Shown: in pieces, positions 1,840 to 46,628 of the stretch
Layout of the letters: each line of letters starts with the position of its first letter
Numbering within the stretch: the stretch's first letter is position 1
Virus record (IMG/VR): IMGVR_UViG_3300035698_016806
Coordinates: 1 to 64,000 of that record
Source of the DNA: a virus
Length of the DNA stretch: 64,000 nt
Reading direction: 5' to 3' (one strand)
The notes under the pieces: generated by a model
What the model saw: only the letters and a program-made list of their open reading frames with translations
What the model was told of the DNA's origin: nothing
Database searches by the model: none
Position numbers and translations under genes: made by a program

Positions 1840-4800
1840 CTATAGTTGTTTAATTTGATCCATTGACATTTCTGCCATCTCGGCAAAATTACCTCCATCT
1901 TCTTTTAATTCTGATAACTCAGTTTCAATTTCCATTGGAACAACTAACCATTCAAATCTATTCTGCAAGTCAGAAACTATATTGGAAACACCTTCAACAT
2001 AAAATTCAGTTTCATCTTTGTGAATGTCGGAAAGTACACTATCATGTACCTGGCCAATTAACTTTGTTCTCAGCTTGTTCTTACGAATGAATTTTGCAAT
2101 CTCATTCAAAGTGAATAATAATAAATGGAATGATGAGCCTTGAATTGGGTAGTTGGTGCATTGCTTTCTATCCATGTACCCCTGAAACCTGAAACCGAAA
2201 TAAGTTTCAATGAATCCATATCGCTGATAAAACTCAATAGTATCCTTTTTCCATTGAGTATAATCAGGAAATCTTTCATTCCACATTTTATCTTCTATGT
2301 TTTTACAATGCTCAAGAAAAGACCCCTCTGAAGGCTCATATTTTTCCATTACTCCGAGTTCATAAATTCCTTTACTTTCAAGATGATCTTTTACAGAAAC
2401 CCCATTAGGGAATTCAAGTCCTCCTTCAACAACAATTTCCCATAATTTAGGAGCGCATGAACCAAACCAATCCCCATAGAACTGTGCAAATGTCCAATTA
2501 TTCTTGGTAAAGAATCTTAATTCTTTTATTTTCTTTTTCTGGGCTTTAGAATATTTAGAATTATTTTTATCCATCATATCAAAAGAAGCCATAAATATTT
2601 CTATTGCCAGGTCCCGATGCATATCTCCAAGAGTAATATCATGAATAAATGTTTTATCCATATGATATGAATTTTTTATAATTACCCCTGCTGACACAGC
2701 AAAATTATGCGCTCCTTTCACATTGATATTATAAACATCCTCATGCCCATGAAACTCTATTGAAACAATTTTATGATTATATTCTCTTTTATATTCAGCA
2801 AGTGTCATGTCATGCGCACTTTTTAAATGTGTGTTTGTCACATTTTTAAACATTTTTCCACAAACTTTGCATTCTTGATCTACTTTTTTATTTTTCCAAT
2901 ATTCTTTTTTACTGTCTGAAAGTTTTTTCACTTGGCTTTTGGGCAAAGTTCTACCTGACATACGTATAGATAGTGCTCTTTTTTGTTCATCAGTTTGTTT
3001 ATTTCCCCGTTGTGGGCATGAAACTCCTTTTATTGCTTTACTTATTTTTTCTTTATGTTCCTTAGATAATGGCCTTCTACGCTTGCCTTTATGATGCAAT
3101 GATACATGATCACTAATTGACATTATTTCGAGATTTCTTAAATCATTGTTTAATCTATTTTCATCTTTATGATGCATTACATTTCCTGAATCTTTCCCAA
3201 CTTCTTTTTTAAATACATCAATACCAATTAGAGTATGTTCCCCTATTGATTTTCTATTGTTTAAATTAATATGCCAATAGCCATTCTTTTCTTTTTTATA
3301 GAAGGGCATTAAACTCATGCCAATTTTTAAATTTTGCAATTCAACGTATTTACCTTCTGCCTTACTTCCATGTCGAATCATAAAATTATGTTCTTTCGTT
3401 GCTTTAATACATTTTCCATTATCAAGGGTTACTTTCCATACTTCTTGCTTTTCCCCAGTAATACCACCCTCTGTAACTTGTGCAATTTTTATTCTTTTTT
3501 CTATTAAATCATACCCATAAACAAAAACATTTTCAGTTTTTATTCTTTTAATTATCTGCTTAATTGATTTAGATCCCTCAATAGTTTCAATTTTTGTATC
3601 CCCTGTTACACACGCACTCGTTACAATTTCTGCCCCAGAGAAATCTTGTTCTGCAAGTCTACAATTTTTAGAAGGAACAATACCCTTTCTAATTAATGCT
3701 TTAATAATTGCATCTCTGTTGGGAATATTTTGAAAATTAGGGGCGCTCGAACTGGAACGATAGGAAATCGGAATATGAAGGTCAAAAAAGGGATGGATGA
3801 TTCCGTTTACTTCTTCCCTGATAAACTGCGCAAGATAAGTTCCTTTGCATTTTTCTAATTTCTTTATTTCTATCAGTTTATCAACAAAAGGAAGATTTAA
3901 AGTTTCCAGCGTGGGCTTGTCTGTTTTGTAATTCCCGTTAGCAGTTAATACAGGTGATTTCCCCAACACTTCATAAAAGAGTTTTCCTAAATCAGCATTT
4001 GAAGCAATGTTTATTTCCCTGTTGTATGTTTCCTTGAATTTTCTGGCCTCTCTACCTTCAATCAGTGATTTATTCAGTCCTTTCATTTTTATATTCAGAT
4101 CTTTTTCAGATTGTTCATAATATTCCATATCAATAGGAATTCCATTGTTTTGGATTGTCCCCATAGTATGAAGGCCACGCATGAATAACTTATATGCTTT
4201 AAATCTGTTTTTTAATCTTGGTAGAACCATTGATTGATCTTTGTATCTCATCATTGTGAAAATACAATCTAACCCATTGTATATCAATAACTCCCTGAAT
4301 GGGGCTTTTTCGATTGTATTAAATTCCTCATTCTTTGACTTCAAAAAGGGAGCTATCACATTATCATACGGACGAACACCGTAATTTACGAAGGCTTGAA
4401 ATTTTAGTCCTGTAGAAGCTCGGCGATTATCTAAAATATGTTCAGCCATCATTGTGTCCCAGTGCCACCTTGTTGCCCTTGTTCCGACATGAACTTTTGA
4501 CCAAGAATCTTCAAACTTCCAATTCTGAACTACTTTTTTAATATCATTGTCACGGAGAATTCTTTTCCATAATAATTTAATAGTTTCAAATTCTACATTA
4601 GTCCAGAATGATTTATAATTGAACGGAAATGCATATGCTTTTTCGGTAGATACAGCAATTCCAATAGTTGAAAGTTTATGTCCTTCCCTATATGGCTTCA
4701 GCCCTGTTGTTTCATAATCAAATGCTATTGTAGGCTTTTTATTCAAGATTCGTTTTAAGAGCGATTTAACAGCTTTGAAATCAGTAAGTATAGTGACGTA

Positions 4801-6444
4801 CTGCTCATAGTCATTAAAAGCTTCATACGTTCGTTTCAGACAGTGAGAAACACGTTTCATATCTTTGACAAACGTACATTTTAGATTTTTGTCTTTTTCT
4901 TTATCAACTATGAGTTTTGGATGATACAATGGGACAATGAAACAACCAAACTTTTGATCCGGGATTTCGTATGCTCTCCATCTTGCTACTTCTCTATTTG
5001 AAAAATCTTCCCCGAATAGAGAAGTATTTGCAAGACTACCGAGAGTTATGATTAATTTTGGCTTTAATGTTCTGATTGCTTTTTCTACGTGGGGGTAACA
5101 GCACTTTATTTCTTTATGTGTTGGAATTCTGCCATTAGGTGGTCTGCAATTATGGGATACTATACCACCTGCAATAAACGAGTGGTCTTCCTCAACTTCC
5201 AAACAATATAGATATTCCTGTCTTTTTTGTGTATATATTTCTATATGTTCAATTTTTGTTGTTGTGAATACATATTCCCCTGAGTGATTTTTTAAAATTC
5301 GTTTCAATTCTTCTATTGGATTTTCTGAGGATATAAAAACTATGTCATGCCCATTTTTAATTGCTATTTTAGTTCGTTCATCATATCTTATTTTTTTTGC
5401 TTTTTTACCGTGGTAAAAACTTTTGGGGTTTTCTATTTCTACAAGAAGATTGTGATCTTTGATAAAATAATCAAAATTTAGCACACCTATTGAATACTGA
5501 TGTATAAAATTAATTTCCTCTTTAATTAACCAATTACCAAGAACAAATTCTCCAGATCCAACTATTATTCCTGTATATAAAGAATTTATTCTTTCTCGTG
5601 ACTGTGCATTTTTTTCATAGCAAGAAGTTTTTGATTCTTTTGTTCTTTTATCCTCTGAACAAAATACCCCTTCTTGCACTAATTGTTTCATTTTTTTATT
5701 GGCTTCTTTCGTTATTGTTTTCTTGTCTCTTACTCCATTTTTATATTGTGCCTTCATGAACATTGATGTTGCTTTATTATAACATTTTTGACAGCATGTT
5801 GACATTGTGCCATCATAAACTCTGGGATTTTTATTGTATATTTTTCCACATATTATACAAGTTTCCCCAAGCACAGATATATTATCATTCGTTTTTAAAT
5901 TTATTGCGGAAATCCATTTTTTACCGTTATAAAATTTATGGTCTTGTGTAACAGTGTACGATTTAAATTTTGTTTTTATACGTACAAGTTTCTCTTTATT
6001 CATTCTAATATTTTTGGGAAGATCATGTATTCTTGACAATACTCTTCTGAATCTGCCCTTATGAGTTAAAACTAAATCACCTACACTAACATCTGATATA
6101 TATTTATACCCTTTAGAAGTGTAAACTGATATTTTAGGGTTTATAAAACAACTTACTGCATTCATTTTCCAACAATCTTTATTCAGTGATATTTTGTGTA
6201 CTTTAAGTTCATCACCGAGAAGTTTACCAGGATCACCCATTAATGATGCTCCATAAAGATCTTCTTCCTCACTTGGATAGTCAGATATTATAAGAATGCC
6301 CTTTCTACCTTCCCCCGTAAACTTGATTTTTGGATTCATGCAAGTAGATTGTAACTTACATTTACCACATTCAGGCTCAAGTTGGTACACATCTATGACT
6401 TTAGATGCTGACTTTATAATTTCCCCTTGAGTAAAGAACCCCAT
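1840..6444 (-). CDS. polA: Family A DNA polymerase with N-terminal family-4 (FeS) uracil-DNA glycosylase domain and 3'-5' exonuclease; contains two inteins (~886 aa after splicing)
   Basis: UDG: CGKCKL...NAVS/CRPP...LYHP. Exo: FDYETTGL. Pol: RSSSSAPNFQNIP, DFSGAE (motif A), NYPIQG, QVHDSV (motif C). Confidence 0.93.
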   Translation of the reverse strand: MGFFTQGEIIKSASKVIDVYQLEPECGKCKLQSTCMNPKIKFTGEGRKGILIISDYPSEEEDLYGASLMGDPGKLLGDELKVHKISLNKDCWKMNAVSCFINPKISVYTSKGYKYISDVSVGDLVLTHKGRFRRVLSRIHDLPKNIRMNKEKLVRIKTKFKSYTVTQDHKFYNGKKWISAINLKTNDNISVLGETCIICGKIYNKNPRVYDGTMSTCCQKCYNKATSMFMKAQYKNGVRDKKTITKEANKKMKQLVQEGVFCSEDKRTKESKTSCYEKNAQSRERINSLYTGIIVGSGEFVLGNWLIKEEINFIHQYSIGVLNFDYFIKDHNLLVEIENPKSFYHGKKAKKIRYDERTKIAIKNGHDIVFISSENPIEELKRILKNHSGEYVFTTTKIEHIEIYTQKRQEYLYCLEVEEDHSFIAGGIVSHNCRPPNGRIPTHKEIKCCYPHVEKAIRTLKPKLIITLGSLANTSLFGEDFSNREVARWRAYEIPDQKFGCFIVPLYHPKLIVDKEKDKNLKCTFVKDMKRVSHCLKRTYEAFNDYEQYVTILTDFKAVKSLLKRILNKKPTIAFDYETTGLKPYREGHKLSTIGIAVSTEKAYAFPFNYKSFWTNVEFETIKLLWKRILRDNDIKKVVQNWKFEDSWSKVHVGTRATRWHWDTMMAEHILDNRRASTGLKFQAFVNYGVRPYDNVIAPFLKSKNEEFNTIEKAPFRELLIYNGLDCIFTMMRYKDQSMVLPRLKNRFKAYKLFMRGLHTMGTIQNNGIPIDMEYYEQSEKDLNIKMKGLNKSLIEGREARKFKETYNREINIASNADLGKLFYEVLGKSPVLTANGNYKTDKPTLETLNLPFVDKLIEIKKLEKCKGTYLAQFIREEVNGIIHPFFDLHIPISYRSSSSAPNFQNIPNRDAIIKALIRKGIVPSKNCRLAEQDFSGAEIVTSACVTGDTKIETIEGSKSIKQIIKRIKTENVFVYGYDLIEKRIKIAQVTEGGITGEKQEVWKVTLDNGKCIKATKEHNFMIRHGSKAEGKYVELQNLKIGMSLMPFYKKEKNGYWHINLNNRKSIGEHTLIGIDVFKKEVGKDSGNVMHHKDENRLNNDLRNLEIMSISDHVSLHHKGKRRRPLSKEHKEKISKAIKGVSCPQRGNKQTDEQKRALSIRMSGRTLPKSQVKKLSDSKKEYWKNKKVDQECKVCGKMFKNVTNTHLKSAHDMTLAEYKREYNHKIVSIEFHGHEDVYNINVKGAHNFAVSAGVIIKNSYHMDKTFIHDITLGDMHRDLAIEIFMASFDMMDKNNSKYSKAQKKKIKELRFFTKNNWTFAQFYGDWFGSCAPKLWEIVVEGGLEFPNGVSVKDHLESKGIYELGVMEKYEPSEGSFLEHCKNIEDKMWNERFPDYTQWKKDTIEFYQRYGFIETYFGFRFQGYMDRKQCTNYPIQGSSFHLLLFTLNEIAKFIRKNKLRTKLIGQVHDSVLSDIHKDETEFYVEGVSNIVSDLQNRFEWLVVPMEIETELSELKEDGGNFAEMAEMSMDQIKQL
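2671..3612 (-). mobile_element. Intein 2 (314 aa) just after polymerase motif A, with HNH and NUMOD3-like repeats
   Basis: Starts CVTGDT; ATKEHNF; ends VYNINVKGAHNFAVSAGVIIKN followed by Ser. Internal HHKDENRLNNDLRNL and PLSKEHKEKISK. Confidence 0.9.
5149..6150 (-). mobile_element. Intein 1 (334 aa) in the UDG domain, with a Vsr/DUF559-like endonuclease
   Basis: Starts CFINPK; block B TVTQDHKF; ends YCLEVEEDHSFIAGGIVSHN followed by Cys. Internal QYSIG...FDYFI...LLVEIE. Confidence 0.9.
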
Positions 6445-7450: not shown

Positions 7451-8572
7451 TTACACCCCATTATTTTTATATGTGTCTATATCTTTTTTTTCCAATTTAT
7501 GATTTTTAATTCCATCATCTGACTGGATATAATCCTCAAAAGAAATCTTTGAATTTATACCCCGCATTAACCAATAATGTCTAAATGCACGACCTAATTG
7601 CAATGTCCAATGTTTCCCAACAAAAAGATCCTTGGTACTCAGACTATTTAATGGTCTATAATATTGGGGATATGGGCGAATTTTTAAGTCGCTGCATGTT
7701 CTTGCTCTGTAATACGAATCTTGTGGCTTATCATTAAAATTAAATAAAACATAAGCCATCATATTACTTGGAGGTACTCCAGCATCTATAAGCATTTTAG
7801 CAGCATCTTGAAAAATACCATCTTCCTCAATTCTATCAAACGCTATTCTCATGCCATTTCGTATAAATTTAAGTTCAGCTAATCTTTTTGCTTTTTCTTT
7901 GGTAATATACTTTACATCAAATCCATTTTCAAAAAGCACTTTTTTATTATGCTCAAGAGTAAAATCAATAACTTCATATAAATGTTTAATTGGTGCTGCT
8001 GATAAATTGTTATCAAATATCATTAGATTTGGTTTTGATAGATCAACTACTTTTTTCCAATGTTTATTAATCCATAAACCTTTTTCTATTCTTGGTACCG
8101 GGCAATATTTGCAAAAATTGACGCATCCCCTGGTGGTAAACACGTAAGAAAATGTATCCCATGGATCTTCAATGTTCCACATAATTTCAGGATCAGGAGT
8201 ACATAAGTCCAAACGTTTTGAATACCCCGAAAATAAGTATGTATTTTCAAAATCTTTAAAAGCTTTTGGCATTAATGAAGAAAAGACCCCTCCAAATAGA
8301 ATGGGTGTATTTTGATTGAAAAACCCACGTTGTTTTGGAATTTTTAATACAGGGTCAGAATAATAGGTAAATAAAGTTGTTACACATATTAAATCATATT
8401 TTTTTGGTAATATATGATCTGAAAAATCAACTTCTTTCCCGGCATCCTTCAAATATGTTTTTATTTTAGCAAGTCCAAGTGGAGGATATTTTTTTCTATA
8501 ATTAGGTTCTATGAGTAATACATTTTTTGCAGCATCAAACATTTCAAAAACTTTTTCTTCAGTAATAATCAT
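7451..8572 (-). CDS. Radical SAM enzyme with N-terminal cobalamin-binding-like domain
   Basis: TRGCVNFCKYC (CxxxCxxC); N-terminal VLLIEP...YPPLGLAKI; DNNL; start chosen by ATGA overlap and RBS. Confidence 0.85.
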   Translation of the reverse strand: MIITEEKVFEMFDAAKNVLLIEPNYRKKYPPLGLAKIKTYLKDAGKEVDFSDHILPKKYDLICVTTLFTYYSDPVLKIPKQRGFFNQNTPILFGGVFSSLMPKAFKDFENTYLFSGYSKRLDLCTPDPEIMWNIEDPWDTFSYVFTTRGCVNFCKYCPVPRIEKGLWINKHWKKVVDLSKPNLMIFDNNLSAAPIKHLYEVIDFTLEHNKKVLFENGFDVKYITKEKAKRLAELKFIRNGMRIAFDRIEEDGIFQDAAKMLIDAGVPPSNMMAYVLFNFNDKPQDSYYRARTCSDLKIRPYPQYYRPLNSLSTKDLFVGKHWTLQLGRAFRHYWLMRGINSKISFEDYIQSDDGIKNHKLEKKDIDTYKNNGV

Positions 8573-9393
8573 AATATATCCTCTAATAGCCATAATTTTA
8601 ATAAAGAATAAACACAAAGAGGAACTTGTCCATTACCTATAGCATGAATTCTTTCTTTTTGATATTTAACTGATTTAATCGGCTTAGGTTTTTTTAAATT
8701 ATTAATAGTCCATTTTGGAAGTACAATTTTCTTTAATGGTTTTAAGGATGTCCAGTTTATAGGCCACCCCATTAAAAATTCAAATATAATTGGATTTGTG
8801 CTTAATTGATTTCGTAATAAAGTTTTTGCTGATTCAATATCGTAGATATCTGTAAATTTTTTGATATTTGTTTCATCTTTAGACCCACCCCTAAAACCAT
8901 TAGTAGAATTAATTGTCGGGGTTACTGTTTCTCTCTCCAAAAATCCATAGTCTATTCCTTTTATGGAGTGCTCCCACATCTTTTGCTGATAAAGTACTCC
9001 ATCTAATATTATACCCGAGTTTGGACAAATCTCCGAATATGGAATAGATGTAGGGAAAAGAGAGCAAGTTCGGTACGTTTTCAAAAATGAAAAATCTTGG
9101 TTGAATGATGCGAATGGTCTCTTTCGTTGCTGGCCACATATCTCTTTCATCGTCTTCAGCTTTACGTAGTCCCGCAGAACTATATGGTTGACAAGGTGGT
9201 CCTCCTGTGATGATATCAACCATTCCCTTATATGCTTTGGCGTAACCTTGTTTGTTAAATTCTTGGATATCCCCAAAGATTGGGCATTTATCAAGCAATC
9301 CGTCCTCTTGTCTTTGTTGCAAGATCTTTTGACAGTATGCATCCCATTCCACCATTCCAATTGTTTTGATATCAAGAAAAAGGGAGGTGCCAA
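8569..9393 (-). CDS. C5-cytosine methyltransferase small (beta-like) subunit in an overlapping frame, carrying motifs IX and X; true start uncertain
   Basis: NPIIFEFLMGWPINWT (motif IX-like) and RIHAIGNGQVP (motif X); overlaps 8909..9454 in another frame. Confidence 0.75.
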   Translation of the reverse strand: MAPPFFLISKQLEWWNGMHTVKRSCNKDKRTDCLINAQSLGISKNLTNKVTPKHIREWLISSQEDHLVNHIVLRDYVKLKTMKEICGQQRKRPFASFNQDFSFLKTYRTCSLFPTSIPYSEICPNSGIILDGVLYQQKMWEHSIKGIDYGFLERETVTPTINSTNGFRGGSKDETNIKKFTDIYDIESAKTLLRNQLSTNPIIFEFLMGWPINWTSLKPLKKIVLPKWTINNLKKPKPIKSVKYQKERIHAIGNGQVPLCVYSLLKLWLLEDIL

Positions 9394-9454
9394 TTAAGCC
9401 ACCTCCCACTCCAGAAAATAAACTTAATTCTCTAAGCTTCAACTTCTTTGTCAT
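8909..9454 (-). CDS. C5-cytosine methyltransferase catalytic (alpha-like) subunit, motifs I-VIII
   Basis: LSLFSGVGG (I), GGPPCQPYS (IV), FENVPNL (VI), HKRNRLWI (VIII); stops before motifs IX/X. Confidence 0.9.
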   Translation of the reverse strand: MTKKLKLRELSLFSGVGGGLIGTSLFLDIKTIGMVEWDAYCQKILQQRQEDGLLDKCPIFGDIQEFNKQGYAKAYKGMVDIITGGPPCQPYSSAGLRKAEDDERDMWPATKETIRIIQPRFFIFENVPNLLSFPYIYSIFGDLSKLGYNIRWSTLSAKDVGALHKRNRLWIFGERNSNPDN

Positions 9455-41881: not shown

Positions 41882-44239
41882 ATGGCAAGAAAACCTATAA
41901 TCATATGGAAACCGTGGCCCGGATCTCAGCAGAAGTTCTTGACATGTCCTGCATGGGAATGTCTCCTTCATGGTAACAGAGGCGGCGGTAAAACGGACGT
42001 TCTTATTATGGATTTTCTGCAAGATGTTGATAAAGGGTTCGGGATTGATTATAAGGGGCTATTGCTCAGAGAAGCAACCACAGAACTTGGTGATGTTATA
42101 TCGAAGACAAAGAAGTGGATTCCACGAATCTTCCCTCTTGCAAAATATAATGGATCAAAGAAGATATGGACATTTTCAGATGGTGAAACTCTTTGGTTGA
42201 ATTATGCTCGGGTTGAAGCTGATTATGAACAGTATCATGGGCATGAGTACCCATGGATTGGTTGGGAGGAATTAACCAACCATGCGTTTGACAAAGTTTA
42301 TAAAAAATTGATGTCTTGTAATCGGTCATCCAACGCAGGAATCACACCAAAATATAGGGGAACTTGTAATCCAAGTGGTCCAGGACATCAGTGGGTTAAG
42401 CAAAGATTCATTGATGCTACACAAACAGGTAAAATTCTTAAAGAAGATATAGAATTCGAGTATCCCAATGAAAAGGGTGATACGGTTTCAACAACATTAA
42501 CTGTAACCAGAACTCATGTCAGAAGTTTTCAAGCAGAAAATAAATCATTGGCTGAAGCTGATCCTTTATATATGGCTAAAATATATGAATTGACTAAAGA
42601 TAATGAAATGCTTAGAGCCGCATGGATTGATGGTTCCTGGGATTTATTGATTGGTGGATTTTTTACTGATGTGTGGGATAAAGATATTCATGTGTTACCA
42701 ACATTCAAAGTTCCTACTTCTTGGGATCTTATCAGAAGCTTTGATTGGGGTTCTTCTAAGCCTTGGGCAGTCACTTATGGATTTATAACAAATGGGGAAC
42801 AACCTGATCCTCATTTACTTGGTGGAGAGATTATTCCATATATCCCAAAGGGTTCAGTGATCATTTGCACTGAGATATATGGATGGAACGGAAACATAAA
42901 TGAAGGTGATCAAGCCGTATCTTCTGAAATAGCAGAGCGTGTTTTGGCAGTTGACAATGCTTTATTAACTGAGTATGGTATACGTTGTGTTCCTGGACCA
43001 GCAGATACTTCCATTTACGATGTAAGAGACGGGACATCAATTGGAGCTAATTTAGGATCTTGTGGATGTCATTGGACAAGAGCTTACAAAGGAGCAGGAT
43101 CAAGAGTTGCTGGATGGTCAATTATTAGACAAATGTTAGGTGCTGCAAAAAGAGGTGATATAGAAACTCCACATCTGTACTTTTTTTCTCAAGCAGAGCA
43201 TCACATTAGAACATTACCAGTTCAACAGAGAGATCCGAAGAAGCCAGAAGATATTCAATGTTTTGTGGCAGGTACTATGGTGTCCTTAGAAAATGGATTT
43301 AGAAAGATTGAGGATATACTGGTTGGTGATATTGTTAAAACTCCGATAGGGTTGCGAAAAGTAATAAATGCCGGTTCTACTGGATTTGCAAAAATAACAA
43401 AGGTAATTTTCGGTGAAAATGAATTAAAGGGAACTTTTGACCATCCAGTATTTGTAGAAGGTGAAGGATTAGTTTCATTAAGTAAATTGGTTAAAGGAGA
43501 TATTTTATGTCAAAACTCATTACATATTTTAGAGGAATCAAATTCACAAGTGTCAATGAGGGATACTTTGAATGCCACCACAGTAATCGTAAAATTTTTG
43601 ATGGAACAACATTGTTGCACAGAGCAAAATGGCAATTCTATATTGGACCAATTCCAGCAGAACATGAACTCCATCATAAAAATAGAATCAAATATGATTG
43701 CAGTAGGAAAAATCTTGAACTTCTTCATGGCTCAGATCACGCAAGATTCCACCTGCAAGAAAGAATGCAGAAAGGTGGGGATTGTTACGAAAAACTTAAA
43801 ATATGGAGAAAATCTAAAGAGGGTAAACGACAGCTTCGATCTAATATTAAAAAATGTAGAGAAAATACTCCCGAAAGAAAATTTACGTGCGATTACTGTG
43901 GTAAGGTTGTTATTACAAAACATCCATCAAAGAAATTTTGCTCCCTTAAATGTAAAGAAGCAATATCAGGAAAAATTAAAAAAGAATGTGTCATGTGCGG
44001 AGAATTCTTCTGGACAAAACCACACAACACAAGAGAAACACAAACTTGTGGTTACGCATGTGGATGGGAATTGCGACGAAGCAACAGTATATAATTTGAC
44101 AACTGAGCAATCAGGAATGTATTATGCGAACGGCGTTCTTGTTTCTAATACAGATGGAGAGGATCATTGTATGGATTCCGCACGTTACCTAATTGCCAGA
44201 AGAATGTCAGCAATGAAACAAAGATCAGTAAAAAGTTAA
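41882..44239 (+). CDS. terL: Terminase large subunit with an intein in the nuclease domain
   Basis: GNRGGGKT, WEELT, TCNPSGPGHQWVK, FDWG, EDHCMDSARY. Confidence 0.95.
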   Translation: MARKPIIIWKPWPGSQQKFLTCPAWECLLHGNRGGGKTDVLIMDFLQDVDKGFGIDYKGLLLREATTELGDVISKTKKWIPRIFPLAKYNGSKKIWTFSDGETLWLNYARVEADYEQYHGHEYPWIGWEELTNHAFDKVYKKLMSCNRSSNAGITPKYRGTCNPSGPGHQWVKQRFIDATQTGKILKEDIEFEYPNEKGDTVSTTLTVTRTHVRSFQAENKSLAEADPLYMAKIYELTKDNEMLRAAWIDGSWDLLIGGFFTDVWDKDIHVLPTFKVPTSWDLIRSFDWGSSKPWAVTYGFITNGEQPDPHLLGGEIIPYIPKGSVIICTEIYGWNGNINEGDQAVSSEIAERVLAVDNALLTEYGIRCVPGPADTSIYDVRDGTSIGANLGSCGCHWTRAYKGAGSRVAGWSIIRQMLGAAKRGDIETPHLYFFSQAEHHIRTLPVQQRDPKKPEDIQCFVAGTMVSLENGFRKIEDILVGDIVKTPIGLRKVINAGSTGFAKITKVIFGENELKGTFDHPVFVEGEGLVSLSKLVKGDILCQNSLHILEESNSQVSMRDTLNATTVIVKFLMEQHCCTEQNGNSILDQFQQNMNSIIKIESNMIAVGKILNFFMAQITQDSTCKKECRKVGIVTKNLKYGENLKRVNDSFDLILKNVEKILPKENLRAITVVRLLLQNIHQRNFAPLNVKKQYQEKLKKNVSCAENSSGQNHTTQEKHKLVVTHVDGNCDEATVYNLTTEQSGMYYANGVLVSNTDGEDHCMDSARYLIARRMSAMKQRSVKS
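43259..44149 (+). mobile_element. Intein 4 (297 aa) carrying its endonuclease in an alternative frame
   Basis: Starts CFVAGTMV; GTFDHPVF; ends VYNLTT...YYANGVLVSN followed by Thr. Confidence 0.9.
43507..44094 (+). CDS. HNH endonuclease with Cys4 zinc-finger repeats, nested out of frame inside the terminase intein
   Basis: LLHRAKW...GPIP...HHKNRIKYDCSRKNLELL...H; CDYC...FCSLKC, CVMC...TCGYAC; AAAGGAGA RBS 6 nt upstream. Confidence 0.85.
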   Translation: MSKLITYFRGIKFTSVNEGYFECHHSNRKIFDGTTLLHRAKWQFYIGPIPAEHELHHKNRIKYDCSRKNLELLHGSDHARFHLQERMQKGGDCYEKLKIWRKSKEGKRQLRSNIKKCRENTPERKFTCDYCGKVVITKHPSKKFCSLKCKEAISGKIKKECVMCGEFFWTKPHNTRETQTCGYACGWELRRSNSI

Positions 44240-44251
44240 AGGAGATAACAA

Positions 44252-45796
44252 ATGGCATCAAAAAAACAAACAACGACCACAGCATCCATAGGCGCAGTTG
44301 ATACAGTTCATCCAGAATATGACAGGCACAAAGTGCCGTGGATGAGGGTTCGGGATTGTATGAAAGGGGAGGATGTTGTAAAATCCAAAAAAGAACTATA
44401 TCTCCCAAGACCTTCAGGAATGACAGGTGAACGTAAGAAAGCATATGATGCCTATTTGGAAAGGGCACATTTCCCACTTGTAGTTTCCTATGCTCTTTCA
44501 GGTGCTTTGGGCATTGTAATTACAAAACTACCTGAATTTAATGTGCCAAAACAACTTGAGTACATTCTGAAAACAGCTACCAAAGATGGTAGATCATTAA
44601 ACCAATTATTTCTTGATATTGTTATTGAAATATTTCAAACTGGCAGAGTTCCTTTGCTTGTAGATGTCATTGCTTCCAAAAATGAATTCAGGTTTGTTGA
44701 TTATAAAGCAGAAGCATTTATCAATTGGGGAATAAATTCAGAGCAAGAAGAAGAAAGTTTGTCTCTTGGAGTTTTGAAAGAAACAAGGCCTGATTCAGAT
44801 GATATTTTTTCTCATTCCACTAAAGATGTTTATCGTGTTTTGCAGTTGGTAGAAGAAAAATACACTACAGCTTTATATGGTACGGACGGAAATCAAATTG
44901 TAGATTCCAATGTATCGCCTGATTTAAGAGGAAAGCCAATTAATAGGATTCCTTTGTTCCTGGCAGGTTCAATTAATAACTCATTTGACATGCAACCAAT
45001 TCCTTTGATCTCAGTTGCTAATTGTTCTGTACAGATTTACAGAAAAGAGGCTGATCTTGCAAATTCAGAATACTTATCTTGTAATCCTACTCTTTGTATT
45101 GTAGGCGCAAGCAATGATGAAAATCTTCCTAATGTAGTTGGTTCCTCTGTAATGATTGTTATTCCAGACCCGGCAGCAAGAGTTTTTTATACTGTAACTG
45201 ACACAGCCGCATTAAAACATGTATCTGAACATATAACAGGGCTTTATGAAGAAGCAATCAGACACGGTGTTGCTATCTTAGACGCACGTAAAGGAGTCGA
45301 AGCAGCAGAATCACTCAGAATACGTCAATCAACGCAGAGCGCATCATTATACTCTGTTTTTCTGTCTGCTATGAACGCAATCAAGCAGGGTCTTGAGTTA
45401 ATGTGTGATTGGGGTGGATTTAACAAGGAAGAGGTTATTCTTGATGCTCCATCCTCACTTACTCAGGGTATTCCTGATTCAACCATACTTGCTCAGATAA
45501 TTGAAGGTTATGCCACTGGTGTTATCCCATTAGATGTTATCCATAGATATCTTGTTTATTCAGGTCTTCTTGATCAAACTATTGGTTATGATGATTATGT
45601 AACTTTGCTTAAATCTGATGATATGAATTTAGGCAGAAGTCCAGAAGAGGAAGGACTTTCTCTTAAAGACAAAGATGGAAATATTATTGGTGACAAAACG
45701 AAAAAAGATCCAGATAAAACGATTAGTGATCTTGAGAAAAAGAAAGCTGATGAAAAAGCTGAAAAAAGAGTTCCAAAAAAGATAGTTAAGAAGTAA
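44252..45796 (+). CDS. Portal protein (DUF4055-like)
   Basis: HPEY...W...VRDC.KGE...YLP...Y.AYLERA; position after TerL. Confidence 0.88.
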   Translation: MASKKQTTTTASIGAVDTVHPEYDRHKVPWMRVRDCMKGEDVVKSKKELYLPRPSGMTGERKKAYDAYLERAHFPLVVSYALSGALGIVITKLPEFNVPKQLEYILKTATKDGRSLNQLFLDIVIEIFQTGRVPLLVDVIASKNEFRFVDYKAEAFINWGINSEQEEESLSLGVLKETRPDSDDIFSHSTKDVYRVLQLVEEKYTTALYGTDGNQIVDSNVSPDLRGKPINRIPLFLAGSINNSFDMQPIPLISVANCSVQIYRKEADLANSEYLSCNPTLCIVGASNDENLPNVVGSSVMIVIPDPAARVFYTVTDTAALKHVSEHITGLYEEAIRHGVAILDARKGVEAAESLRIRQSTQSASLYSVFLSAMNAIKQGLELMCDWGGFNKEEVILDAPSSLTQGIPDSTILAQIIEGYATGVIPLDVIHRYLVYSGLLDQTIGYDDYVTLLKSDDMNLGRSPEEEGLSLKDKDGNIIGDKTKKDPDKTISDLEKKKADEKAEKRVPKKIVKK

Positions 45797-45860
45797 ATTA
45801 ACGAAAGTTTGAGACTTTCACACTGGGATCTTGAGGATTCCGCAATTAAGGAGAAAGAAA

Positions 45861-46628
45861 ATGCCCGTATTTGATTTTATCGAGAACACAGAACAAAGAG
45901 AGAAAGCTGAAAATCTTCACAAAATTGAAGTTGATCAGCTTACAGTTGATTTGACCAATGCAAACAAGGTTACAACAGAGGAAGCTGTGGCTGGTTTAAA
46001 AACCAAAAATGCTGAGATTCTGGATGAGAAAAAGACCCTCTCTGATAATCTTAAAAAGTTTGAAGGATATGATCCTGAAGCTGTTAAAGTTGCCACTGAT
46101 TTCTACACAAAGAATAAAGATGTCGAGTTCTTGAAAGATGGTACAGTGGAAGAACTTATCCAAACAAAAACTTCTGTGTTAACTGCTGATTTTGAAGCAA
46201 AAATTGGTGAAATGAGTGTGAATCTTACTGCTGCCCAGAAATCATCCAATGAGTACCAGGGATTATTTGAGTCCAAAGTAATTGATGATGGTGTTCGTGC
46301 AGCCGCAGTAAAAGCTGGAATGATTGATACTGCTGTTGAGGATGCTGTACTTCGTGGACGTGGTGTATTTTCACTTGATACAAATAAAATGATTGAAGCC
46401 CGTGATGCAGAAGGGAAGTTGGCAATTTCTTCTGACAAGAAAGTTTTGACCACTGAAAATTGGGTTGAAGATCTCAAAGAAACTTCTCCTCATTATTGGC
46501 CTCCATCTCAAGGAGCAGGGGCTACAGGTGGTAAAATTGGTCCTGAGAGTGATAAGGCAACTAAACTTCAAGCTCTTGCTGATGCTGGAGATGTTACAGC
46601 GTACAGAGCCATGCGAGATAAAAAATAA
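45861..46628 (+). CDS. Capsid scaffolding protein
   Basis: Coiled coil, GLKTKNAEIL, PHYWPPSQGAGATGG; precedes the capsid gene. Confidence 0.75.
   Translation: MPVFDFIENTEQREKAENLHKIEVDQLTVDLTNANKVTTEEAVAGLKTKNAEILDEKKTLSDNLKKFEGYDPEAVKVATDFYTKNKDVEFLKDGTVEELIQTKTSVLTADFEAKIGEMSVNLTAAQKSSNEYQGLFESKVIDDGVRAAAVKAGMIDTAVEDAVLRGRGVFSLDTNKMIEARDAEGKLAISSDKKVLTTENWVEDLKETSPHYWPPSQGAGATGGKIGPESDKATKLQALADAGDVTAYRAMRDKK

Follow-up and report, generated by a model that had tools for sequence, protein, structure and literature searches.

A candidate mobile intein with a dual-coding core and a nested, out-of-frame HNH endonuclease in the large terminase gene of a salt-lake phage

The 64,000-nucleotide stretch of DNA analyzed here, in its entirety termed the window, represents positions 1 to 64,000 of the IMG/VR virus record IMGVR_UViG_3300035698_016806, and originates from a phage contig of 35% GC recovered from salt-lake metagenomes. 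Its large terminase gene, terL, contains an intein, and within this intein an HNH endonuclease is encoded in another reading frame. We consider it likely, with a probability of roughly 80%, that the element is a mobile intein residing in the C-terminal motif of the terminase, with a dual-coding core and a separately started HNH nuclease that would spread the intein. An earlier note on the sequence had proposed such a dual-coding element, with the intein frame as mere filler, and this proposal gains support from how the layout is conserved, from selection acting frame by frame, from the avoidance of stops and from the predicted structures.

The terL precursor open reading frame (ORF; 41882..44239, on the plus strand as are all parts of the element described below) encodes 785 residues, runs unbroken through the intein and matches phrog_2 with an E-value of 5.7e-25. 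The class-1 intein spans 297 residues (43259..44149), starting with Cys1, displaying a block B of the form T59xxH62 (TFDH) and ending in VLVSN, hence with a C-terminal Ser-Asn, followed by Thr at the +1 position. It is composed of an N-terminal splicing (Hint) domain (residues 1-88, 43259..43522), in which codon periodicity is that of the TerL frame, a stop-free linker free of Pfam domains (residues 89-260, 43523..44038), and a C-terminal splicing domain with blocks F and G (residues 261-297, 44039..44149). The C-extein (44150..44239) begins with TDGEDHCMDSARY, the conserved terminase C-terminal motif. C1, T59, H62 and N297 are invariant among 11 homologues, and the penultimate residue is Ser, Thr or Ala rather than His across the family, representing a conserved trait. 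A Pfam search of the intein frame yielded weak Hint matches only and no nuclease domain, and an Rfam search of the region, as well as of the related loci L106, L109 and L110, found neither an intron nor any other RNA family. As the host gene is essential and the catalytic residues are conserved, the intein is likely removed by protein splicing, which would take place in cis since the intein frame is continuous.

The nested HNH gene, hereafter ORF2, encodes 195 residues at 43507..44094, in frame -1 (offset +2) relative to terL. It consists of an HNH_3 catalytic domain (approximately residues 17-90), a helical linker and two Cys4 zinc ribbons (C128-C149 and C161-C185). ORF2 matches Pfam HNH_3 (PF13392) with an E-value of 1.6e-9 and 37.7 bits, above the curated cut-off of 24.8, as do its homologues with 27.9-58 bits, and matches to PHROG HNH families were also recovered. 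Among 12 sequences of 25-80% identity, the catalytic His, His-His and Asn and the downstream His residues are conserved, with no variation at H38, H56, H57, H78 and H82 and at least 90% conservation of N69, and eight invariant cysteines form the two ribbons with the pattern CxxC...CxxxC. Between 43507 and 44091 neither the TerL frame nor the HNH frame includes a stop, while the third frame has 22, and the resulting run of 199 codons exceeds every other alternative-frame open run within the 29 open frames of at least 200 codons in the window. The last 56 nt of ORF2 (44039-44094), encoding its final helix and stop, are shared with the C-terminal splicing domain.

ORF2 is preceded by a Shine-Dalgarno (SD) sequence, AAAGGAGA (43493..43500), built from the Lys-Gly-Asp codons of the Hint domain, with the ATG at 43507 positioned seven bases past it. 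A comparable SD-like motif is located 4-8 nt ahead of the start codon at the aligned HNH start in all 19 lineages with the nested layout, with a GGAG core in 16 of these, and the start codon is ATG in 17 and GTG in two. In the closest subgroup of the window the motif coincides with the Gly-Asp codons of the Hint 'L-x-x-G-D' turn. RNA folding around the HNH start is not more stable than in shuffled sequences (z -0.6). The start signals thereby suggest that the HNH protein is initiated independently at the internal ATG. The description in the earlier note was confirmed throughout: the coordinates, splicing blocks and Hint fold of the intein, the atypical C-terminus, the lack of an endonuclease motif in the intein frame, the location, offset, ribosome-binding site and ATG of the second ORF, its HNH motif and Cys4 repeats, and the openness of both frames were all recovered, including in profile searches of the two frames as the note had advised.

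Predicted structures were also obtained for the two frames. The alignment-based model of the HNH protein has a mean predicted local distance difference test score (pLDDT) of 86. Its N-terminal domain is best matched in the PDB by I-HmuI (1u3e; 75 residues superposing with a root-mean-square deviation (rmsd) of 3.0 Å) at a Z-score of 7.6, which falls in the grey zone below 8, with the next match at 4.2, and the C-terminal part resembles small zinc ribbons. A Foldseek search of the HNH model against the PDB returned no match at E ≤ 0.001 (E 0.3), and phmmer of the PDB gave no significant match. Overall, the HNH frame is predicted to fold confidently, into a domain that may resemble I-HmuI. For the TerL frame, residues 1-88 and 261-297 are mostly confidently modeled (10-residue block means of pLDDT 67-92, of which 81-86 in the C-terminal domain), while the 172 residues in between (89-260) remain below 50. 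The confident part of the intein model superposes on the gp41-1 intein 6riz with a Z-score of 19.7 and an rmsd of 1.7 Å across 123 residues, and approximately 30 further inteins match at Z above 8. The TerL frame is thus predicted to form a mini-intein fold joined by an unfoldable 172-residue linker.

Homologues were collected through IMG/VR scans with TerL and with HNH, and through tblastn of cultured phages. The nested layout, in which HNH occupies frame -1 within a terL intein without closing the TerL frame, is present in 19 distinct lineages with HNH identities of 25-82%, among them Clostridium phage phiCDHM19, Tetrasphaera phage TJE1 and a Rhodobacteraceae phage. With respect to a possible swapping of HNH cassettes between inteins, identity ranks of HNH and of the intein N domain are broadly congruent and speak neither for nor against it. 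At the nucleotide level, blastn of terL against cultured phages gave a 117-nt match and nothing else. Contigs from four public sequencing runs, covering the region with both ends of the HNH ORF, exhibit 0 differences and 0 gaps, and the out-of-frame layout is not an artefact. The earlier note had named compensating indels and a non-conserved alternative ORF as observations that would overturn its reading; the former are absent from these contigs, and the latter is at odds with the retention of the frame -1 HNH ORF in the 19 lineages. Its suggestion that the arrangement could be an intermediate in how mini-inteins acquire endonucleases is however misleading, since a layout maintained in 19 lineages, down to approximately 25% HNH identity and at two insertion sites, represents a long-lived rather than a fleeting state. 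That standard annotation would miss the nested gene, on the other hand, is borne out by the GenBank records of phiCDHM19 and TJE1, which list terL only. A word-index search of 5.8 billion proteins returned only four called proteins matching the nested HNH.

Selection on the two frames was assessed through codon-position divergences computed on a TerL-frame codon alignment. Between the window and L081, divergences at TerL positions 1/2/3 are 0.29/0.24/0.52 and 0.33/0.25/0.43 for the exteins and the intein N domain, peaking at position 3, while in the 176-codon centre they are 0.11/0.22/0.16. The peak there shifts to TerL position 2, corresponding to the third position of HNH codons, and the least variable is TerL position 1, equivalent to HNH position 2. 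HNH position 3 is the most variable in the centre in 15 of 16 pairs, the exception being L001-L006, where TerL position 3 is slightly more variable (0.27 vs 0.24). Outside the centre, in the exteins and splicing blocks, variation is highest at TerL position 3, and the overlap segment 44039-44094 is the least variable stretch. Frame-by-frame dN/dS (omega) in homologous TerL inteins, as proposed in the earlier note, was estimated by naive NG86 for the centre. Values are 0.21-0.58 when HNH codons are read and 0.45-1.09 for TerL codons, indicating purifying selection on HNH; omega is below 1 in pairs containing the window.

The openness of the TerL frame was evaluated by permutation of synonymous HNH codons. 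For the window, the TerL frame stayed open in just 0.2% of trials. Across 12 lineages, stop-free permutations made up 0-7% and 1.8-7.2 TerL-frame stops are predicted, yet none is observed in any of the 12. Natural controls point in the same direction, as free-standing and split-intein homologues possess 1-11 stops in the same frame while nested homologues have 0. Linker composition (hydropathy, Pro and charge) was likewise compared with the synonymous permutations, and permutation barely alters it. Collectively, these comparisons support that selection switches frame in the intein centre, where the HNH protein would be kept and the TerL frame merely held free of stops.

The distribution of the intein was examined among 88 related terL loci, of which 69 have no intein at the site and instead read PEDID|T(D/E)LEDH. 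Two insertion sites, six codons apart, are used: site a, EDIx|C...N|TxxEDH, with Thr at the +1 position, and site b, ...EDH|C...N|CxDSxRY, with Cys at +1, and HNH occupies frame -1 at both. The N-extein tree requires at least eight gains or losses at site a and at least three at site b, each forced by well-supported branches. The sister TerL proteins of the window (L003-L005, 84% identical) are devoid of the intein. In distant pairs, HNH identity exceeds extein identity, as for L083 with 52% vs 27%. Being scattered on the TerL tree, the intein appears to move between terL genes. In L001 (1946-2533), and also in L012 and L019, a lone nonsense codon is present at HNH codon 43 (Q43 in the window), with the rest of the HNH frame and all of the TerL frame preserved. 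The nuclease there seems to have been inactivated recently, in line with a late stage of the homing cycle.

On this basis, a mechanism can be outlined. During terL translation, ribosomes would traverse all 297 intein codons, residues 1-88 and 261-297 would assemble into a mini-intein Hint domain, with the approximately 172 residues in between as a disordered loop, and self-excision would yield a 488-residue TerL. From the same late mRNA, the SD formed by the Hint Lys-Gly-Asp codons and the ATG would start the 195-residue frame -1 product, a putative I-HmuI-like HNH_3 endonuclease with two zinc ribbons. The free nuclease would probably nick or cut intein-less terL of co-infecting relatives near the site encoding PEDIx/TxxEDH, and recombinational repair would copy the intein together with the HNH gene into cut alleles, i.e. 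homing. Selection would preserve the HNH protein, with the overlapping TerL frame only kept stop-free.

Several observations weigh against this reading. The penultimate intein residue is Ser instead of His, which bears on splicing efficiency, and internal initiation within a translated ORF is assumed from start signals. The nonsense codon in L001, L012 and L019 indicates that the nuclease can be lost. Moreover, conservation across the locus is highest in the dual-coding core (43490-44120), with 80-90% nucleotide identity as compared to 55-65% in the intein N domain (43259-43450), and the exteins are also less conserved between lineages than the core. Synonymous divergence (dS) of the core, 0.44-0.60, is lower than the 0.8-1.1 of the flanking splicing domain. 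A linker acting as pure filler does not fully account for this low dS, which would reflect either an extra constraint on the linker or mRNA, or exchange of the core between inteins more recently than its flanks.

We also considered alternative explanations for the nested gene. In HK97-like phages, cleavage at cos is aided by HNH proteins (Kala et al. 2014, as cited in PMC4422536). The nested HNH could analogously serve mainly as a terminase accessory nuclease, its placement in terL ensuring co-expression, an idea raised in the Brucella-phage paper (PMC4422536) and congruent with HNH homologues always being found at the terL-portal junction, whether free-standing (in phages PAE1 and SN1), split (in phage CL2) or nested. 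However, the nearest TerL relatives lack both intein and HNH at the locus, 69 of the 88 related terL loci have no HNH at this place (a count for the locus alone), the family belongs to HNH_3 and appears I-HmuI-like, and one lineage has a nonsense mutation in HNH. A packaging HNH of the HK97 gp74 type would moreover be expected throughout related phages as a required packaging partner, which the window family is not at this locus. The strict coupling of HNH to the intein or to a terL-adjacent spot is rather as expected for a homing gene beside its target, and we judge the accessory role unlikely. Somewhat less likely again is that the HNH of the window is an inactive relic, an ORF that has merely not decayed after fixation of the intein. 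The homing-cycle model predicts such post-fixation decay, and the nonsense codon in L001, L012 and L019 fits exactly, but the window retains every invariant residue for catalysis and zinc binding as well as the SD and the ATG, and omega is below 1 in the pairs that include it.

The remaining two explanations concern the frame itself. HNH is in frame -1 relative to terL, which would be compatible with -1 ribosomal frameshifting that yields HNH fused to TerL-N and intein-N. Nevertheless, the HNH frame is closed by a stop 1-35 codons upstream of the aligned start (36 in L039, four in the window) and there is no conserved slippery heptamer, disfavoring this route; in addition, the SD and ATG/GTG are kept in 19 of 19 lineages and no stable RNA structure is formed at the site, leaving frameshifting very improbable. 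An assembly or sequencing error, with two compensating indels displacing an in-frame HNH, or alternatively a group I intron with an ORF, carries next to no weight. Such indels cannot explain a segment of 56 nt (44039-44094) that encodes a Hint beta-strand and an HNH helix at once, and the gap-free contigs of four runs and the equal frame offset in 19 independent, diverged lineages also refute an error, as the absence of Rfam hits and the confirmed Hint fold refute the intron. A mobile intein with a separately initiated homing nuclease is the reading we retain.

Relatives of the HNH gene occur in other states. In the window, terL is followed by the portal gene (44252-45796) and, beyond it, the scaffold gene (45831-46628). 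In Pseudomonas phage PAE1 and Sphaerotilus phage SN1, a free-standing HNH homologue is situated directly between intact terL and the portal gene, approximately 100 nt from the intein position of other phages; the PAE1 homologue shares 41% identity with the HNH of L028, a site-b copy. In Lactobacillus phage CL2 (L109, NC_028835.1), terL is fractured (506-2760): TerL-N with the intein N half terminates at a stop at 1952-1954, the HNH gene follows at 1967-2590, and the intein C half (..VYNMEVESHHNF..IVHN|CMDATRY) with TerL-C is encoded from approximately 2487 in a different frame and overlaps the 3' end of HNH. In CL2 the connecting frame includes 7-8 stops, and the GenBank annotation of the locus states only 'terminase large subunit' and 'HNH endonuclease'. 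In Exiguobacterium phage vB_EauM-23 (L110, 1077-3261), the annotated terL ends with ..LEDKNNH SMAA*, and the missing C-terminal motif (CDATRYAMEM..) is encoded past the HNH gene in another frame; recognizable intein halves were not detected at this locus, nor an intron by Rfam. An HNH profile search at E ≤ 1e-30 recovered 423 clusters, the majority being stand-alone proteins of approximately 200 residues. Among the best 150 of the 423, no TerL-length protein had a single full-length match indicative of an in-frame TerL-HNH fusion, and a search for longer proteins with an in-frame HNH fusion found none, both of which constitute weak evidence. One lineage with HNH_3 and a double zinc ribbon is found at the same conserved 3' terL motif free-standing, between split-intein halves and nested in frame -1. 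If these forms are linked by descent, they may record the merger of a free-standing homing gene with an intein at its target site, the overprinted form being a stable end point maintained through avoidance of stops and the split intein the outcome upon frame closure, a scenario that we put forward tentatively and rate as possible, somewhat short of an even chance.

The out-of-frame layout is not new, as it was reported in 2015, 2025 and 2026, and the idea of a homing endonuclease lying out of frame is credited to Gorbalenya 1998, as cited in bioRxiv 10.64898/2026.09.14.751524. In Brucella phages, an out-of-frame HNH in a terL intein was noted in 2015 (PMC4422536): as in the window, a zinc-ribbon HNH gene is located across the central part of terL in a different frame and was interpreted as intein-associated. 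That report differs in being a passing mention, without selection or structural analysis. Brucella phages are absent from the 16 records of one HNH tblastn query and from the records and organism names listed for the other (E ≤ 1e-5), and because of this their HNH probably represents a different subfamily. In 2025, actinophage inteins were described (bioRxiv 10.1101/2025.01.02.630785) with out-of-frame EndoVII-like nucleases as well as antisense LAGLIDADG and VSR nucleases. They share with the window a same-strand, out-of-frame nuclease between splicing blocks, an unstructured in-frame centre and TerL among the hosts, and a model of invasion by free-standing homing endonuclease genes was put forward there. 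The nuclease is however EndoVII-like, as opposed to HNH_3 with two zinc ribbons, the window belongs to a different phage group, being a 35% GC salt-lake phage, and its family is distinguished by the two insertion sites, the conserved SD and start codon, and the block F overlap.

A cyanobacterial dnaX intein, for which frame-wise omega was reported in 2026 (Phillips, DeSimone, Gogarten; bioRxiv 10.64898/2026.09.14.751524), harbors an out-of-frame (+2) LAGLIDADG homing endonuclease. Like the window, it combines low omega in the endonuclease frame with raised extein-frame omega in the overlap and a sporadic distribution, but it resides in a cellular host gene and its nuclease is LAGLIDADG rather than HNH. 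The characteristics of inteins whose same-strand homing endonuclease lies out of frame are indeed found in the window, namely a complete nuclease ORF between the blocks with the intein frame open, and purifying selection on the nuclease frame that is relaxed on the overlapping intein frame. In fractured genes, free-standing endonuclease genes are considered to invade inteins, with frame closure leading to split inteins (Dassa et al. 2009, PMC2677866). The same components recur in CL2, where the IntN and IntC parts of a split terL intein are separated by a homologue of the window HNH, in agreement with that model of invasion and frame closure, whereas intein halves on separate ORFs occur only in this relative and not in the window. 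The ShiLan domain is an out-of-frame HNH within an in-frame phage methylase insertion (Arsenault et al. 2025, PMC11855218), and thus similarly an HNH hidden in the other frame of an insertion left open in the host frame; it is without splicing domains, while the window has a complete Hint domain.

The phage also carries a canonical counterpart. A 1534-residue UDG-exonuclease-PolA ORF (window 1840-6444, minus strand) shows two intein matches, and the second PolA insert includes an in-frame HNH_3, NUMOD3 and a zinc-finger-like region (approximately 2725-3327), in which the first catalytic His of the HNH is apparently replaced. As in the terL intein, an HNH_3 nuclease is tied to an intein; the PolA HNH is 24% identical to ORF2 and, unlike ORF2, forms an in-frame fusion flanked by the splicing blocks. 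A run of 160 codons within a 274-codon frame, second in length among the alternative-frame open runs of the window, may represent overlapping methyltransferase frames at 8569-9454.

Further inserts were noted in related terL genes. L015 contains a second insertion of approximately 1.2 kb (3360-4594) at Walker B (EF|S...N|SFIGWEE), with the TerL frame open and no Pfam match, and within it an antisense ORF of 347 residues (3491-4531, minus strand) with HNH_3 and helix-turn-helix domains, suggesting an intein-like insert with an antisense HNH. In L013, L020, L025, L037, L038 and L040, terL has an insert after TerL residue 37-38, and an in-frame insert of approximately 1.06 kb at the P-loop is, in L013, shown to be a LAGLIDADG-type intein. 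Additional terL inteins, in a set including L095, L100 and L103, are of the mini-intein kind and occupy Walker A or Walker B, with at most three inserts per terL.

New here are the frame-specific selection in this family of HNH and terL inteins, the conserved SD and start codon, the functional overlap with block F, the two adjacent insertion sites, and the series of free-standing, split and nested forms. The nested HNH gene is overlooked by gene callers, and frame-specific selection is supported by sequence evidence of unusual clarity. Few inteins with a separate, overprinted homing endonuclease have been documented, and the findings extend them by a large family that is widespread in the environment. 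As several of the relatives reside in cultivable phages, a model in which splicing comes first and the endonuclease invades later, as well as the origin of split inteins, becomes directly testable.

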